From positions 114,459-178,458 of the forward strand of contig CAYOQS010000003.1 in the NCBI GenBank assembly GCA_964406185.1: a DNA stretch of 64,000 nucleotides, given 5' to 3'. Shown one piece after another: positions 20,790-52,470 of this stretch. Under the pieces are notes generated by a model that saw only the letters and a program-made list of their open reading frames with translations, did no database searches and was not told the origin of the DNA. The position numbers were made by a program, and so were the translations under genes. Each line of letters begins with the position of its first letter. Within the stretch, counting starts at the first letter, position 1. The DNA is from an uncultured Methanosarcinales archaeon (GTDB taxonomy: Archaea; Nanobdellota; Nanobdellia; Woesearchaeales; UBA11576).

Positions 20790-23453
20790 TTATTCTACAA
20801 GGATCGCAGGCTTGCCAGGCAGGGCATTTCCGGCCTTAGAGCTGTCGCTGTCCTCAGCCTTCACGACGACAACCTCTGCACCAAACTCATCTGAGAACAT
20901 ATTCTTATTCTTATCAAGGGCGTCAAATTCCTCATCCTGGGAAGTGACAGTATCAGGTATCTTAGAGCGGTCCTTGACAAGCCTCGGCACCAGTTTTGAT
21001 ATCTCCTTGCCATGCTCCCCATCCATACAGGACTTGATCAGAGCACCCACATCATGGGTCTCCTCAAGACCCTTCTTCAGCTTACATACAACATCATACT
21101 TCCAGGCATCAGCCACCAGAAAGGTTATACGCTTAGGATCCTCTATCGAGGCCAGTTTCAGTATGTCACGCACATCACCTATAGAAGCGCGCGCGGCGCC
21201 CTCAGAAGCCTCAGCAGCAAGATCTATCCTGCTCTCATCAGGCTCTGGCCAGGACTCAAGAGAGACAAACGGCTTGTTGCCGATCATCTCCCAGAACTCC
21301 TCAGCAAGATGAGGGCATACAGGAGAGAGCAATCTTATGAAAGACTCCATGTCCTCTTTTGAGCAACCCTCCTCGACGCAATAGAACATCTCCTTGAGCT
21401 TGATCACCGCAAGATTATACCTGAGATCAAGGATGTCGTCGGTATACTCCTTTATCAGACGGTTGAACCTGCTCTGGCCCAGAGCGCTCATCCTACCCGG
21501 CTTGAAGTCCTGGACACAAGAGATTATACGGTTCACGAAACGCAGGCTGCCATTGATGCCTGCTTCACTCCACTCCAGGTCCTTGTCAGGAGATGCTATC
21601 GATACCAGGAAAAGCCTGGCTGTATCGATGCCATGAGTCCTGCTGATCTCCTCAGGCAACACCACGTTCCCTCTGGATTTTGACATAACAACGCCTTCCT
21701 TGTGCAACATGCCCTGATGAAATACCTTTGAAAACGGCTCGTCAAACTCTATCATACCCATATCCTTAAGGGCCTTGGTAAAGAAACGAGCGTAGATAAG
21801 ATGCATGCAGGCATGCTCAGCCCCACCGATGTAAAGGTCCACAGGCATCCAGTAATCGGCCTTGGCAGGTTCAAATGGTTCATCACTGTTAAGGTTATCA
21901 GTATATCTCAGGAAGTACCAGCTTGAATCAAAGAAAGTGTCCATGGTGTCAGTCTCACGACGGGCAGGCTTGTTACACTTAGGGCATTTACACTTCACGA
22001 AAGACTCGCTGGTCTCAAGAGGATTACCCTCACCGAACTTGATATCATCAGGCAACAGGACAGGAAGCTGGTCGTAAGGAACAGGCACAGCACCGCAATC
22101 ATCACAGTAGATTATCGGAATCGGAGTGCCCCAGTAACGCTGCCTGGAGACAAGCCAGTCACGCAGCTTGAAATTAGTTGTAGCCTTGCCCCAGCCCTTC
22201 TCCTCTGCAAATTCAGTTATGTCAGCCATCGCGTCATGGTTGTCCATGCCATCGAAATCACCGCTGTTCACAAGCACCCCGCGGTCCACATAAGCCCTGG
22301 CCATCCTGGCAGGGTCAAGCTCGTAATCCGGTGGAGATATCACCACCCTGACAGGCAGGCCATACTTCCTGGCAAACTCAAAATCGCGCTGGTCATGAGC
22401 AGGAACAGCCATCACAGCCCCTGTACCATACTCGTAAAGCGCGTAATCCGCAACCCACAACGGGCACTTTTCGCCAGTAAAACGATTCATGAAATACTTG
22501 CCCAGAAACATGCCTGTCTTAGGCTTACCCTCTGCAGTACGCTCGATACTGGACATCGATTTTACCTGCTTTACGAAGTCCTTGGCATCCTTCTCCAAAG
22601 GGGTATCCTTAGTTAATTCAGTTACGAGAGGGTGTTCTGCAGCAAGGACAAGGTATGTTATGCCATACACAGTATCAGGCCTTGTGGTGAACGTGCTTAT
22701 CGTCTGGCCTGTCTCAGAACCATCCTCATTGACGATCTTAAAGTCTAGCAGAGTGCCTGTACTCTTGCCAATCCAGTTCTCCTGCATGATCTTAGTTCTT
22801 TTAGGCCAATCAATTCTACTATGCCCTTCCAGAAGTTCATCAGCATATTTTGTCTGTTTTATGAACCACTGTTCTATGTCTCTAGCCTCGACTTCAGTAT
22901 CCTCGTGCCTCCAACACTTACCGTCATGAACCTGCTCGTTAGCAAGTACTGTATTACACTTAGGACACCAGTTTACGGATGATGATTTACGGTATACAAG
23001 CCCTTTCTCCATGAATTTCAGGAAGAAGAACTGGTTCCACCGGTAATAATCAGGATCAGATGTCCTGAGCATCCTGTCCCAGTCATAGCTCAGGCCGAGC
23101 TCCTTCTGCTGCCTGATGAAATTCGCTATCGAGCTATCGGTATACTCCTTTGGCTGCGTCCCTGCCTTTATCGCGGCGTTCTCAGCAGGCAGGCCAAAAG
23201 AATCATAACCCATAGGGTATATAACATCAGAACCGGTCATACGCTTGAATCTGGCATAGATATCACCTATAGTGTAGTTGAAAGCATGGCCCATATGCAG
23301 ACCTGATCCTGACGGATAAGGAAACATCTCAAGCACATAGAACTTATCCTTGCCTGACTTAGTAGCCTGGAATGCCTTGGCATCCTCCCATCTCTTCTGC
23401 CACTTCTTCTGGACCGAATCGAAATCAATCTTAATGTCTGCCATGAAAACCAC
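20790..23453 (-). CDS. leuS: leucyl-tRNA synthetase
   Basis: HIGH-type SGSGLHMGHAFNY, KMSKS-type VMSKSRGN, Zn Cys clusters, editing domain. Start may be ATG 23444 (MADIKIDF). Confidence 0.9.
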   Translation of the reverse strand: MVFMADIKIDFDSVQKKWQKRWEDAKAFQATKSGKDKFYVLEMFPYPSGSGLHMGHAFNYTIGDIYARFKRMTGSDVIYPMGYDSFGLPAENAAIKAGTQPKEYTDSSIANFIRQQKELGLSYDWDRMLRTSDPDYYRWNQFFFLKFMEKGLVYRKSSSVNWCPKCNTVLANEQVHDGKCWRHEDTEVEARDIEQWFIKQTKYADELLEGHSRIDWPKRTKIMQENWIGKSTGTLLDFKIVNEDGSETGQTISTFTTRPDTVYGITYLVLAAEHPLVTELTKDTPLEKDAKDFVKQVKSMSSIERTAEGKPKTGMFLGKYFMNRFTGEKCPLWVADYALYEYGTGAVMAVPAHDQRDFEFARKYGLPVRVVISPPDYELDPARMARAYVDRGVLVNSGDFDGMDNHDAMADITEFAEEKGWGKATTNFKLRDWLVSRQRYWGTPIPIIYCDDCGAVPVPYDQLPVLLPDDIKFGEGNPLETSESFVKCKCPKCNKPARRETDTMDTFFDSSWYFLRYTDNLNSDEPFEPAKADYWMPVDLYIGGAEHACMHLIYARFFTKALKDMGMIEFDEPFSKVFHQGMLHKEGVVMSKSRGNVVLPEEISRTHGIDTARLFLVSIASPDKDLEWSEAGINGSLRFVNRIISCVQDFKPGRMSALGQSRFNRLIKEYTDDILDLRYNLAVIKLKEMFYCVEEGCSKEDMESFIRLLSPVCPHLAEEFWEMIGNKPFVSLESWPEPDESRIDLAAEASEGAARASIGDVRDILKLASIEDPKRITFLVADAWKYDVVCKLKKGLEETHDVGALIKSCMDGEHGKEISKLVPRLVKDRSKIPDTVTSQDEEFDALDKNKNMFSDEFGAEVVVVKAEDSDSSKAGNALPGKPAILVE

Positions 23454-27269: not shown

Positions 27270-27460
27270 TGTGGGGGACGGGTATATCGGCTGTGGCCGA
27301 AGAGCTTCGCCCTCCGCCAAACGCTTTCGAACCCGCGCAGGCACTAAGCCACTAGGCTTCTGAAGCTCGGGCCAAAACCCTGGAAACATGATTTCCGCTG
27401 CCTCAACCTAGCCCGTCTGGTCCACATGATGACTGTGTTTGACCACTCCGGCACCCCCAC
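27270..27460 (-). tRNA. tRNA-Leu (anticodon GAG) with three introns (D-loop about 21 nt, canonical 37/38 43 nt, T-loop/T-stem junction 42 nt)
   Basis: Acceptor GTGGGGG/CCCCCAC, A73, D region TGCCGGAGTGGTCAAA..CGG. Anticodon arm CTAGG-TTGAGG|intron|G-CCTAG has a hand-checked hBHBh' fold. Variable arm TGGCTTAGTGCC. T arm GCGGG-TTCGAAA|intron|CCCGT. Confidence 0.8.
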
Positions 27461-30248: not shown

Positions 30249-30376
30249 GGCGGTAGCCGGGACTTCCAAGCGAAAACCTTGATGCTTTCCGCGATTTGAA
30301 CCCGGACTGGAAGATGACTGCACCATTTCATCAGGTCCCACAGTCTTCTGTGCTGCCAGATTACACCACTACCGCC
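30249..30376 (-). tRNA. tRNA-His (anticodon GTG) with genomically encoded G-1 and two introns (37/38, 22 nt; T-loop/T-stem junction, 32 nt)
   Basis: G(-1)-GCGGTAG..CTACCGC-C. Anticodon arm GAAGA-CTGTGG|intron|A-TCTTC has a canonical hBHBh' fold worked out by hand. T arm CCGGG-TTCAAAT|32 nt|CCCGG. T8 run downstream and TTTATAA box upstream. Confidence 0.85.
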
Positions 30377-32667: not shown

Positions 32668-32996
32668 TAGGACTGCAATTTGACAATTGGAAACCCGGCC
32701 TTGGCCGTGTTGCTAAGGAAAGTCCGCCCACTTATGTGGCCACTCACGGAAGTGAGGCAGGGAAACCTGCGGCAACAGCTCAGAAACGAAACCCCCTCAT
32801 GGGAGGATGATGGACGCGAAGTCCCGGGCGACCGGGACGAGATAACCTCCGGACGTTCCTTGAGGAAAGGATTAAACGGCTAGCCCTGGCCTGTGCAAGT
32901 CTTTACGACGCTAAGTATAATGTCAAAACAGACCATCGCACTCGAGCTTGACTCTTGTGTTCGGGTCTGACAGAAGGCGGCTTACTGCAGTCCGAC
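32668..32996 (+). ncRNA. rnpB: RNase P RNA (archaeal type A-like)
   Basis: P1 GGACTGCA (32670-32677) pairs with TGCAGTCC (32986-32993). CR-I GGAAAGTCCGCCCAC and CR-V ACAGAAGGCGGCTTAC. T-run follows. Confidence 0.85.
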
Positions 32997-42280: not shown

Positions 42281-42288
42281 TTTATATA
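42281..42288 (+). promoter_or_regulatory. TATA box for tRNA-Leu(CAA)
   Basis: TTTATATA lies about 38 nt before the tRNA 5' end. Confidence 0.45.
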
Positions 42289-42322: not shown

Positions 42323-42549
42323 GAGGGGGTGCCGGAGTGGCCAAAACCGCCATGCACCTGCAGGCGGAGGCTATACGGGACAGCTTTTACTGTCCATAGG
42401 CATTAAAAGTCCAAACTCAAGTTTGGTTGAGTGCTGAGGTCTAAAACACCGATGAAGAACTCCGATGGGTCATCTGTTGGCTTAGTGCCTACCAGGGTTC
42501 AAATTGCGGCAAGCCTGCACGGTTCCGCGTGAAAGTCCCTGCCCCCTCA
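42323..42549 (+). tRNA. tRNA-Leu (candidate anticodon CAA), 227-nt gene with four inserted blocks
   Basis: Acceptor GAGGGGG/CCCCCTC, A73, D region TGCCGGAGTGGCCAAAA..CGG, variable arm TGGCTTAGTGCC and T arm CAGGG-TTCAAAT..CCCTG. All are shared with tRNA-Leu(GAG). Anticodon arm is CCAAA-CTCAAG-TTTGG (loop one nt short). Confidence 0.7.
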
Positions 42550-42562
42550 TTTTTTATTTTTT
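42550..42562 (+). terminator. oligo-T signal after tRNA-Leu(CAA)
   Basis: TTTTTTATTTTTT. Confidence 0.55.
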
Positions 42563-50856: not shown

Positions 50857-51471
50857 TCAAGGCCTGACCCAACGGATCTCATAATAAGTCACGTCACCCT
50901 CATCGTCGACGACGCCGATAAGAAGGCGCTTCTTTGTAGAATGGGCGACGCGGTTCTTCGCGGAAAAATCATACCATGTTATCTGCTCACCCTCATGTAC
51001 AGGATACACTATCCACCTCGCGTGGTCCTCACCAGGCTTGACTCCCCTGTCATAAACACGGAAGTCAGCACCAAATTTCAGAGCGGTCTTGACAATATAA
51101 CCGCGGTTGCGCATGTCCTTGAACACACAATACCTGATCCAGAAATTAGGCTCGACCTTCCTCGCCCGTCTTATAAAAGAATCGAAATCAAGGCTCTTAC
51201 CCCTACCGTCCTTCAGGTCAAGCCTCCCCTTCTCAAACAGGAAAAGAGCCTCAAGAAGAGAGAGCTGGACCTTACCATCATCAAGCACATTGCCATACCT
51301 GCTCTGGTTATAGAGCTCCCTAGCATCATCACTTGACTCAGCCAATACACGCTCGCGAGCAAACACAGCAGAAACAACAGCTTTAGGCCTCGCAGGCTCT
51401 GCAGCCTTCTCAGCCTTTGCAGCCGCTCTTGCGGTCTCTGCAGGCGCCCCGGTCTTCTTCTTCCCAGGCAT
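50857..51471 (-). CDS. endA: tRNA-splicing endonuclease EndA (single catalytic-type subunit, about 204 aa, Lys/Ala-rich N-terminal tail)
   Basis: GYIVKTALKFGADFRVYD..HARWIVYPV..AHSTKKRLLIGVVDDEGDVTYYEI. ATG 51471 lies 26 nt from TATA 51492-51501. Confidence 0.85.
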   Translation of the reverse strand: MPGKKKTGAPAETARAAAKAEKAAEPARPKAVVSAVFARERVLAESSDDARELYNQSRYGNVLDDGKVQLSLLEALFLFEKGRLDLKDGRGKSLDFDSFIRRARKVEPNFWIRYCVFKDMRNRGYIVKTALKFGADFRVYDRGVKPGEDHARWIVYPVHEGEQITWYDFSAKNRVAHSTKKRLLIGVVDDEGDVTYYEIRWVRP

Positions 51472-51561
51472 ATCCTGCAGGGATGAGAGATGATTTATAA
51501 ATGTTGCCTCGCGCCGCAATGGCACAACATATTTAAAAAGACAGAAACCAACCAGGCAATC

Positions 51562-52470
51562 ATGATCGAAATAACATTTTTAGGCACGTCAGCCATGGTG
51601 CCAACAAAAGAAAGGAACGTGACAGGCATATTCCTCAGCTACAATAACGAAGGGATACTCCTTGACTGCGGAGAGGGCACGCAGAGGCAGATGAACATCG
51701 CAGGCATAAACAGGAACCGCGTCAAAAGGATACTTGTCAGCCACTGGCACGGAGACCACGTATCAGGAATAGTCGGACTGCTGCAGACCATGGCAAACAA
51801 GGAGAACAACCCCACAGTACACATATACGGACCGAAAGGCACAGAAGAGCACGTCAAACACATGCTCAAGATGGTCATATTTGACGTGCAGATAGAGATA
51901 AAGGTGCACGAACTATTACCGAAAAAAGACGAGATGCTCAAAGCAGAAGAGACAGAAGACTACCTCATAGAATGCGCGGCGCTTGACCACAAGATACCCT
52001 GCATAGGATACAGCTTCACAGAGAAAGACCGGCTCAACATAGATACTGCAAAACAGAAGAAGCTCGGAGTGCGGGACGGCCCCCACCTCAGAAAGATCAA
52101 GGAAGGAAAGACGATCAAATACAAAGGAAACGAGATAAAACCAGAAGACATGACATACCTGGTCGAAGGGAAGAAAATCACTTACGTCGCGGACACCTCC
52201 AAATGCAAGGCGTGCATAATGCTTGCGGAAAACGCGGACCTGCTCATATCAGAATCAGTATACGCAGCAGACATGCAGGACAAGGCAGAACAGTACAAGC
52301 ACCTGACAGCAGCAGACGCTGCGACGATCGCCAGCCAAGCAGACGCGAAGAAGCTCATCCTGACACACTTCTCACAAAGGTACAAGACAGTCGAACAGAT
52401 AGAAGAAGACGCCAAGACCATATTCCCGGATACCAGATGCGCGTTCGACCTCATGAAAGTCAAAGTATGA
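51562..52470 (+). CDS. rnz: ribonuclease Z (tRNA 3' endonuclease)
   Basis: MIEITFLGTSAMVPTKERN and HWHGDH metallo-beta-lactamase motif. ATG 51562 lies 27 nt from TATA 51531-51538. Confidence 0.85.
   Translation: MIEITFLGTSAMVPTKERNVTGIFLSYNNEGILLDCGEGTQRQMNIAGINRNRVKRILVSHWHGDHVSGIVGLLQTMANKENNPTVHIYGPKGTEEHVKHMLKMVIFDVQIEIKVHELLPKKDEMLKAEETEDYLIECAALDHKIPCIGYSFTEKDRLNIDTAKQKKLGVRDGPHLRKIKEGKTIKYKGNEIKPEDMTYLVEGKKITYVADTSKCKACIMLAENADLLISESVYAADMQDKAEQYKHLTAADAATIASQADAKKLILTHFSQRYKTVEQIEEDAKTIFPDTRCAFDLMKVKV

Follow-up and report, generated by a model that had tools for sequence, protein, structure and literature searches.

Is a tRNA gene that is interrupted four times a working gene or the remnant of one? 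The question is raised by a 227-nt locus, 42323-42549 on the + strand, in a 64-kb stretch of contig CAYOQS010000003.1 from an uncultured archaeon (assembly GCA_964406185.1; the whole stretch is called the window hereafter). An earlier note had described it as a tRNA-Leu(CAA) gene with four inserted blocks and a 6-nt anticodon loop, and had considered that it might be defective. Several landmarks in that description can be read directly from the sequence, namely the 7-bp acceptor stem (GAGGGGG/CCCCCTC) with A73, the class-II D-arm start (TGCCGGAGTGGCCAAA) and variable arm (TGGCTTAGTGCC), and a T-arm (CAGGG-TTCAAAT...CCCTG) that is interrupted after TTCAAAT. Standard tools miss the locus: ARAGORN with default settings found no tRNA gene across the 64-kb window, and Rfam, at gathering and E-value thresholds (E <= 0.5), returned no tRNA match at this site, its matches in the window being 5S rRNA, the signal recognition particle RNA and the archaeal RNase P RNA. 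The intron option of ARAGORN gave one call only, a tRNA-SeC with a 105-nt intron at 22112-22311 (- strand), which was rejected as a false positive with poor stems inside protein-coding sequence. The analysis below identifies the locus as a tRNA-Leu(CAA) gene with five exons and four introns of the bulge-helix-bulge (BHB) type, at tRNA positions 21/22, 30/31, 37/38 and 59/60, and concludes that it is intact and very probably functional.

Exon borders were fixed by comparison with relatives. The downstream gene encodes RNase J, whose closest homologues (67-84% identity) are annotated as proteins of Woesearchaeota or Nanoarchaeota metagenome-assembled genomes (MAGs); the host is a member of the Woesearchaeota (DPANN) with a moderate G+C content of about 48%. 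Contigs encoding three of the RNase J homologues were fetched and provided syntenic tRNA orthologues (L001, L002 and L003), located in the same place, after a conserved pair of small open reading frames (ORFs) and between a 113-aa ORF and RNase J. The gene is 161 nt long in L002, against 208 nt in both L001 and L003. A 5'-exon pattern scan, with one genome per species, returned more than 100 tRNA-Leu genes from Woesearchaeota and Pacearchaeota, and the mature window tRNA resembles about 100 of the tRNA-Leu genes of these groups. A metagenome scan with the 14-mer TCCAAACTCAAGTT gave about 120 loci that were almost all chance matches, three being real tRNA-Leu genes. At the syntenic site and elsewhere in Woesearchaeota, the orthologues carry between zero and four introns at the same four sites. 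The claim of four separate insertions in the window gene is confirmed.

The anticodon arm is defined by relatives with fewer introns. In L002 and L123, each with two introns, the sequence reads GGCCAAACGGG-ACAGA-CTCAAG[intron]A-TCTGT-TGGCTTAGTGCC, and the intronless L042 has the same arm, ACAGA-CTCAAGA-TCTGT, uninterrupted; the stem is therefore ACAGA/UCUGU, with a 7-nt CUCAAGA loop. In the window gene, the 5' strand of this stem is interrupted by intron 2 (I2), and the 3' strand, TCTGT, lies directly upstream of the variable arm. L001 and L003 carry a 31-nt insertion that splits ACAG|A, and the window gene has the same insertion along with an additional one of 30 nt (I1) between GGCCAA and ACGGG. 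The stem pairs 27-31/39-43 covary among the genes compared (ACAGA/TCTGT, ATAGA/TCTAT, CTGGA/TCCAG and TTCGC/GCGAA). Pairing of TCTGT with GCGGA or GCAGG further upstream was also tried and was dropped because L002 shows ACAGA.

Each intron site is occupied in some relatives and empty in others. I1 is missing from L001, L002, L003 and L123, in which GGCCAAACGGG runs uninterrupted; its site is occupied, with the same design of the central helix, in L113, L232, L055 and a tRNA-Leu(GAG) paralogue within the window. The second exon appears as uninterrupted ACGGGACAG in L001, L002, L003, L123 and L042. I2 is absent from L002, L123 and L042, and a same-site intron is found in L001, L003, L020, L046, L113, L155, L208 and L232. 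For L113, L020, L046 and the Leu(GAG) paralogue, whose anticodon stems depart from that of the reference, the spliced alignment was made by hand. BLAST aligns I3 with the canonical introns of L001 and L003 at 91% identity over 44 nt; downstream of I3 the exon begins with A38 and TCTGT and passes straight into the variable arm, as it does in all orthologues. The I4 site is occupied in L001, L002, L003, L123, L020 and L113 (32 nt in the window gene, against 22-45 nt), and this T-loop site, 59/60, is reportedly also used in the multiple-intron genes of Thermoproteales. L042 and L028 lack all four introns. When the four introns were compared by BLAST with the window and with all loci, only I3 had relatives, and this test gave no evidence of a mobile intron family.

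These borders differ from those proposed in the earlier note. Its block 4 (42505-42536) stands, being equivalent to I4 at 42504-42535 with a 1-nt slip, but the orthologues move block 1 (42347-42364) to 42345-42374 (I1), block 2 (42369-42410) to 42384-42414 (I2), and block 3 (about 42427-42477) to 42422-42471 (I3). If the original blocks were right, the mature tRNA would contain CGGA-CCAAACUCAAGUUUGG-UGGCUUAG, with a CCAAA/UUUGG stem and an abnormal 6-nt loop. CCAAAC and GTTTGG can indeed pair in the window sequence, and ARAGORN accepts the resulting 84-mer as an odd tRNA with a 6-nt loop and a two-base 'anticodon' ('tRNA-?(SeC|Leu)(ca)'), so the oddity itself is reproducible. However, the CCAAA/TTTGG pairing is not conserved (TCAAA...TTAGT in L001; CCAAA...TTAGT in L003), ACAGA-CTCAAGA-TCTGT is free of I2 in L002, L123 and L042, and the junctions of blocks 1-3 are absent among the hits of a BHB scan, whereas the corrected I2-I4 junctions are among them and the corrected borders yield a canonical tRNA. 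The comparative data refute the original map, which has practically no chance of being right. Its CCAAA joins the final four bases of I2 to A31, and its TTTGG corresponds to bases 1-5 of I3; the 6-nt loop and the CCAAA/TTTGG stem thus arise because the exon borders were misplaced. Among the hairpins noted at the same time, CCGCC/GGCGG is real and forms the h' helix of I1, ACTCAA/TTGAGT is likewise real and corresponds to a conserved guide-target helix of I3 (see below), and GGACAG/CTGTCC competes with the BHB fold of I2.

Splicing the window gene in silico at the corrected borders gives the 84-nt RNA GAGGGGGTGCCGGAGTGGCCAAACGGGACAGACTCAAGATCTGTTGGCTTAGTGCCTACCAGGGTTCAAATCCCTGCCCCCTCA, which default ARAGORN folds into a normal cloverleaf and names tRNA-Leu(caa), in agreement with the identity first assigned to the locus; its anticodon loop has 7 nt and its anticodon stem 5 bp. 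Sixteen subsets of intron removal were tried, and Leu(caa) was obtained only when all four introns were removed, or when I1, I2 and I4 were removed and the ARAGORN intron option was used. The product has the features of a class II tRNA-Leu (a 15-nt variable region, TGGCTTAGTGCCTAC; A73; the anticodon CAA; an extended D-loop with A14 and G18-G19); U8, A14, G18, G19, U33, G37, T54-T55-C56 and A58 are present and every stem is intact. It is identical at 84 of 84 positions to spliced L001 and spliced L002, while the introns of these three genes differ in presence, length and sequence. Judged from this comparison, purifying selection acts on the exons only, and strong exon constraint without intron constraint argues against a pseudogene.

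The junctions defined by homology coincide with splice motifs. The scan used a 4-bp helix H between two 3-nt bulges, with each cut placed after the second bulge nucleotide; the Leu(GAG) paralogue, whose canonical intron is clear-cut, served for calibration. In I4 the hBHBh' motif is complete, with an outer helix h of five pairs (CAGGG/CCCTG), H TTCA/TGAA and h' TGCGG/CCGCG (5-6 pairs). I3, cut after 42421 and 42471, has H CTCA/TGGG and h' TTGG/CCGA (4 pairs); the anticodon stem serves as its outer helix and becomes whole only when I2 is gone, so that h = 1 in the precursor. I2 shows an HBh' motif with H GGAC/GTCC, h' TTTTA/TAAAA (5 contiguous pairs, or 9 with one mismatch) and h = 1. The motif of I1 is a relaxed HBh' that surfaces once one mismatch is allowed in h', with H GGCC/GGCT, h' CCGCC/GGCGG (5 pairs) after one A.A mismatch, and h = 0. 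H is thus 4/4 at all four junctions and h', with one mismatch permitted, has at least 4 pairs, a combination that random position pairs in the window reach at a frequency of 9e-4; four matches at junctions fixed beforehand lie far outside what chance would give. Compensatory changes in H are seen across genomes for I2 (GGAC/GTCC versus GGAT/ATCC) and I4 (TTCA/TGAA versus TTCG/CGAA).

Archaeal tRNA splicing proceeds by cleavage within the BHB bulges by the endonuclease EndA, followed by RtcB-type ligation. The EndA gene lies in the window together with an RNase Z-like gene, 8 kb downstream of tRNA-Leu(CAA). Its product matches Pfam tRNA_int_endo_N (6.8e-16) and tRNA_int_endo (1.6e-29), carries a Lys/Ala-rich N-terminal extension of about 35 aa, and has its best solved-structure matches in the fused EndA of M. 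kandleri (5x89), the alpha subunit of N. equitans and the alpha4 enzyme of M. jannaschii; it is presumed to remove all four introns. In the proposed pathway, the gene would be transcribed from the TATA-box-like element TTTATATA, a putative promoter element with a TTTAWATA counterpart at a similar upstream distance in L001, L002 and L003, and transcription would end at the T-run after A73, likely an archaeal transcription stop. (A scan for sigma-70 promoters and intrinsic terminators was disregarded as not applicable to archaea.) RNase P and RNase Z would trim the ends, EndA would make eight cuts, one in each 3-nt bulge of the four motifs, and an RNA ligase would join the exons in four ligations to give the 84-nt class-II tRNA, with CCA added afterwards. 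I4, with its full motif, should be cleavable in the primary transcript, and I2 probably leaves before I3 or simultaneously with it, because I3 gains its outer helix only after removal of I2. Experiments on the tRNA-Ile of C. merolae, which has three introns, showed a similar order, with the outer introns leaving before the canonical one (PMC3728597).

Several points weigh against a functional gene. The exon borders, the BHB motifs, the canonical product, its conservation and the presence of EndA are directly established, while we infer transcription, end trimming, the cleavages and their order, ligation and CCA addition. I1 and I2 have no outer exon helix to speak of (h = 0-1), and such relaxed motifs are said to need an EndA of broad specificity; in an alignment with the M. 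jannaschii alpha4 enzyme, the window EndA has no insertion, whether in the stretch from the catalytic Tyr to the catalytic His or in the C-terminal part, and no second EndA-like ORF or subunit was seen within the 64-kb window. There is also a BHB-like decoy, with cuts after 42376 and 42401, H CTAT/ATAG and a 6-bp h' (GGACAG/CTGTCC). Spanning 42377-42401, it overlaps the 3' end of I1, exon 2 and I2, and its cleavage would destroy exon 2. As a splice pair it was rejected, since it would delete the conserved exon 2 and yields no tRNA; correct processing requires that it be bypassed, either by the splicing machinery or in the course of folding. Finally, with only 64 kb of the genome in view, a second, intron-poorer tRNA-Leu(CAA) copy may exist.

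Taken together, such points could indicate a decaying or silent pseudogene, with another copy supplying tRNA-Leu(CAA); recognition by neither ARAGORN nor Rfam, a number of insertions unprecedented in the literature found, the decoy overlapping exon 2 and the restriction of the view to a 64-kb window are all compatible with this. We nevertheless consider decay improbable. The exons are identical at 84/84 positions to those of relatives with two or three introns, whose introns have diverged, no stem is broken and the conserved tRNA nucleotides are all kept, so the suspicion of a defect finds no support in a spliced product that equals those of its relatives. Each insertion sits within a BHB motif at a site common to other genomes, and the promoter-like and terminator-like signals are conserved. 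Moreover, all three tRNA genes in the window carry multiple introns, so that the multi-intron state is normal for this organism.

An assembly or binning artefact was considered for the D-loop insertion in particular, I1 then being a chimeric or mis-assembled stretch. No relative of I1 could be detected among the fetched sequences, and the closest orthologues (L001, L002, L003 and L123) are without it, so that it is unique to this genome among its nearest relatives. Yet it lies exactly at the D-loop intron site of L113, L232, L055, L057, L069, L074 and the window Leu(GAG) gene, it shares their H design (G18-G19-Y-C paired with a GRCY that lies two nucleotides upstream of the 3' cut), and, unlike a random mis-join, it leaves the exon sequence precisely intact. 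We regard an artefact as highly improbable. The features of the gene and of the other elements discussed here are listed in Table 1.

Table 1. Features of the tRNA-Leu(CAA) gene, its putative guide element, the processing genes and the other tRNA genes of the window.
Feature	Positions	Strand	Description
TATA-box-like TTTATATA	42281-42288	+	About 35-42 nt upstream of position 1; read from sequence
Exon 1 (E1)	42323-42344	+	22 nt, tRNA positions 1-21; equals the 5' end of orthologues without D-loop intron; acceptor 5' strand, U8, G9, D-stem 5' strand, D-loop
Intron 1 (I1)	42345-42374	+	30 nt, position 21/22, D-loop/D-stem junction
Exon 2 (E2)	42375-42383	+	9-nt micro-exon ACGGGACAG, positions 22-30; D-stem 3' strand, G26, anticodon-stem positions 27-30
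Intron 2 (I2)	42384-42414	+	31 nt, position 30/31, inside anticodon-stem 5' strand
Exon 3 (E3)	42415-42421	+	7-nt micro-exon ACTCAAG, positions 31-37; anticodon C34 A35 A36
Intron 3 (I3)	42422-42471	+	50 nt, canonical position 37/38
K-turn/guide element (putative)	42427-42458	+	Inside I3; antisense to positions 31-36
Guide TTGAGTG (putative)	42427-42433	+	
D'-like CTGA	42434-42437	+	
Hairpin GGT-CTAAAAC-ACC	42438-42450	+	
C'-like GAUGAAGA	42451-42458	+	
Exon 4 (E4)	42472-42503	+	32 nt, positions 38-59; A38, anticodon-stem 3' strand TCTGT, long variable arm, T-stem 5' strand, T-loop TTCAAA
Intron 4 (I4)	42504-42535	+	32 nt, position 59/60, T-loop
Exon 5 (E5)	42536-42549	+	14 nt, positions 60-73; U60, T-stem 3' strand, acceptor 3' strand, discriminator A73; CCA not encoded
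T-run TTTTTTATTTTTT	42550-42562	+	Directly after A73; read from sequence
EndA, tRNA-splicing endonuclease	50857-51471	-	Including stop codon; single-unit, about 204 aa
RNase Z-like gene	51490-52470	+	Head-to-head with EndA
RNase P RNA	32670-32993		Rfam
tRNA-Leu(GAG)	27270-27460	-	Three introns; splices to 84-nt tRNA-Leu(gag)
Leu(GAG) intron 21/22	27417-27438	-	
Leu(GAG) intron 37/38	27358-27400	-	
Leu(GAG) intron 59/60	27284-27325	-	
tRNA-His(GTG)	30249-30375	-	Two introns; G-1 genome-encoded; 73-nt spliced product accepted by ARAGORN
tRNA-His intron 37/38	30316-30337	-	
tRNA-His intron 59/60	30263-30294	-	

How unusual is such a gene? Among about 105 archaeal tRNA-Leu genes compared by spliced alignment, roughly half are intronless and the others mostly have one to three introns; the window gene and L113 alone have four, a count checked by hand. 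The latter comes from an independent Woesearchaeota MAG (contig JBDRKY010000068.1) and has the same four sites, each with H = 4, and a Leu(caa) product. The literature gives 'a maximum of three introns' per archaeal tRNA gene (PMC4033280), and likewise three in PMC8450103, so that the four introns, which the earlier note regarded as exceptional, do exceed the published maximum. No report of a four-intron archaeal tRNA gene was found in the literature searched, and the only return for four-intron tRNAs, a paper on a red alga, describes genes with up to three introns (PMC3728597). Multiple-intron tRNA genes and incomplete tRNA sets have already been reported for DPANN archaea, including one Woesearchaeota genome (PMC5829648). 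The window gene thus carries a known phenomenon to a new extreme and is a modest record rather than a new kind.

Among the nearest parallels are the multiple-intron genes of Thermoproteales (Pyrobaculum, Thermofilum and Caldivirga), described by Sugahara et al. (2007/2008; via PMC4033280 and PMC8450103). They share the same small BHB or relaxed-BHB introns, the combination of canonical and non-canonical positions in one gene, removal by EndA and invisibility to standard tRNA finders, with a stated maximum of three introns against four here. They differ further in that the host is a hyperthermophilic crenarchaeon rather than a DPANN woesearchaeote, and the EndA is of the (alpha-beta)2 type with a crenarchaeal loop rather than single-unit; two exons of the window gene are, in addition, as short as 9 and 7 nt. 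The tRNA gene predictions of Kaneta et al. (2018; PMC5829648) cover one genome each of Woesearchaeota and Pacearchaeota; their paper describes no four-intron gene and links the multiple-intron genes and incomplete sets of DPANN to alpha4-type EndAs with an 'L3' loop, whereas the window EndA, aligned with that of M. jannaschii, has no obvious insertion. The C. merolae tRNA-Ile resembles the window gene in that a single gene combines introns of the D-arm, of position 37/38 and of the T-loop, in its BHB motifs and in an ordered removal like the one proposed here (PMC3728597), but it belongs to a eukaryotic nuclear genome and has three introns, none of them within the anticodon stem, where the window gene has one.

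The window gene thus takes the documented limit of archaeal tRNA gene fragmentation from three introns to four, with exons down to 7 nt, and places this case in DPANN, outside Thermoproteales. Neither ARAGORN nor Rfam detects any of the three tRNA genes in the window, and the tRNA complements of Woesearchaeota MAGs, and with them claims of completeness or "missing tRNA", are therefore probably underestimated. An identical mature tRNA is encoded with two, three or four introns in close relatives, and Leu(CAA) genes of more distant Woesearchaeota have none or one. This series offers natural material for studying the gain and loss of tRNA introns, and also bears on how a single-unit EndA handles relaxed BHB motifs. 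On a bolder and more tentative reading, a plain alpha4-like EndA without known specificity loops would suffice for tRNA genes with up to four introns and exons of 7-9 nt.

The canonical intron, I3, may have a further role. Seventeen distinct Leu(CAA) canonical introns (those of the window gene, L001-L003, L012, L020, L046, L054, L055, L068, L069, L102, L113, L123, L155, L208 and L232) share one layout, in which the target A31-G37 is followed by a spacer of 3-13 nt, TTGAGTR, a D'-like NNGA, a hairpin, a 3-nt bulge ending in U, and GA, the last two giving a C'-like NAU-GA. The kink-turn (K-turn) is well preserved, with the G.A pair in 17/17 introns, A.G in 16/17 and U as the third bulge nucleotide in 17/17. 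Its hairpin stem is 98% paired, and all three pairs counted show compensatory changes; the covariation score of 0.32 compares with 0.10 in shuffles (reached by 0/500) and at most 0.083 in slid controls. TTGAGT can pair with positions 31-36 in all 17 introns, with one compensatory change in L069 (A31-U to G31-C, TTGAGC), and the D'+5 nucleotide pairs with C34 in every case, the duplex being only 6-7 bp. Only one D'-like/C'-like pair is present in these introns, with no second C/D box pair and no terminal C/D pair; the short introns of L012, L054, L068 and L102 leave no room for a second one. Rfam C/D families gave nothing on the window beyond a chance-level match to sR10 (E = 7.4).

We tentatively propose that I3 may act as a minimal guide of the C'/D' type with a single K-turn, directing 2'-O-methylation of the wobble C34 in cis before splicing, a reading drawn from sequence comparison that seems somewhat likelier to fail than to hold. 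The guide helix and the BHB helix cannot coexist, because both use positions 32-35, and this mutual exclusion is why 2'-O-methyl-C34 would have to form before splicing; the methylated precursor would then refold into the BHB and be spliced. Known systems provide two partial precedents. The box C/D intron of pre-tRNA-Trp guides modification of C34 and U39 (Clouet-d'Orval 2001; Singh 2004; as summarised in PMC7994747) and similarly combines a K-turn beside an element antisense to the anticodon loop with guide and BHB folds that exclude each other, whereas I3 has one K-turn, a duplex of 6-7 bp, and a Leu rather than a Trp context. In Pyrococcus, C34 of tRNA-Leu(CAA) is the predicted target of a trans-acting C/D small RNA (PMC7994747), and the D'+5 position of the window I3 likewise falls on C34. 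If the proposal is right, a guide encoded within the intron of tRNA-Leu(CAA) would be conserved across Woesearchaeota, with a sister design in Leu(UAG) aimed at C39, and intron-guided tRNA methylation would extend beyond tRNA-Trp.

As a separate observation, the canonical intron of the L092 tRNA-Leu(UAG) gene (117 nt) contains a similar K-turn or K-loop with D'+5 on C39. The guide in these Leu(UAG) introns, upstream of the K-turn, pairs across the 3' splice junction, and L119, L047 and L050 look alike by eye.

A search for T-arms joined to acceptor stems brought out two further hidden tRNA genes in the window, tRNA-Leu(GAG) and tRNA-His(GTG), both of which splice in silico to canonical tRNAs; the latter, too, was undetected by default ARAGORN and Rfam. 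The window thereby totals nine introns in three tRNA genes, against a highest published genome average of 71 introns in 46 genes (PMC8450103). The canonical intron of tRNA-His contains a UGAUGA motif. The T-loop introns of Leu(CAA) (42504-42535, +) and His (30263-30294, -) are both 32 nt long and identical at 22/32 positions, which may reflect one family spread between tRNA genes or a shared constraint from the identical T-loop.

Two minor observations concern the relatives. The tRNA-Leu genes of L027, L081 and L108 have an intron within the long variable arm (TGGCTTAG|...|TGCC), a site that the window gene does not use. LAGLIDADG_3 ORFs, resembling homing endonucleases, lie just downstream of the orthologous tRNA in L001 (1398-2144) and L003 (1184-1744 and 5647-6732); the window lacks these ORFs, and RNase J follows tRNA-Leu(CAA) directly.

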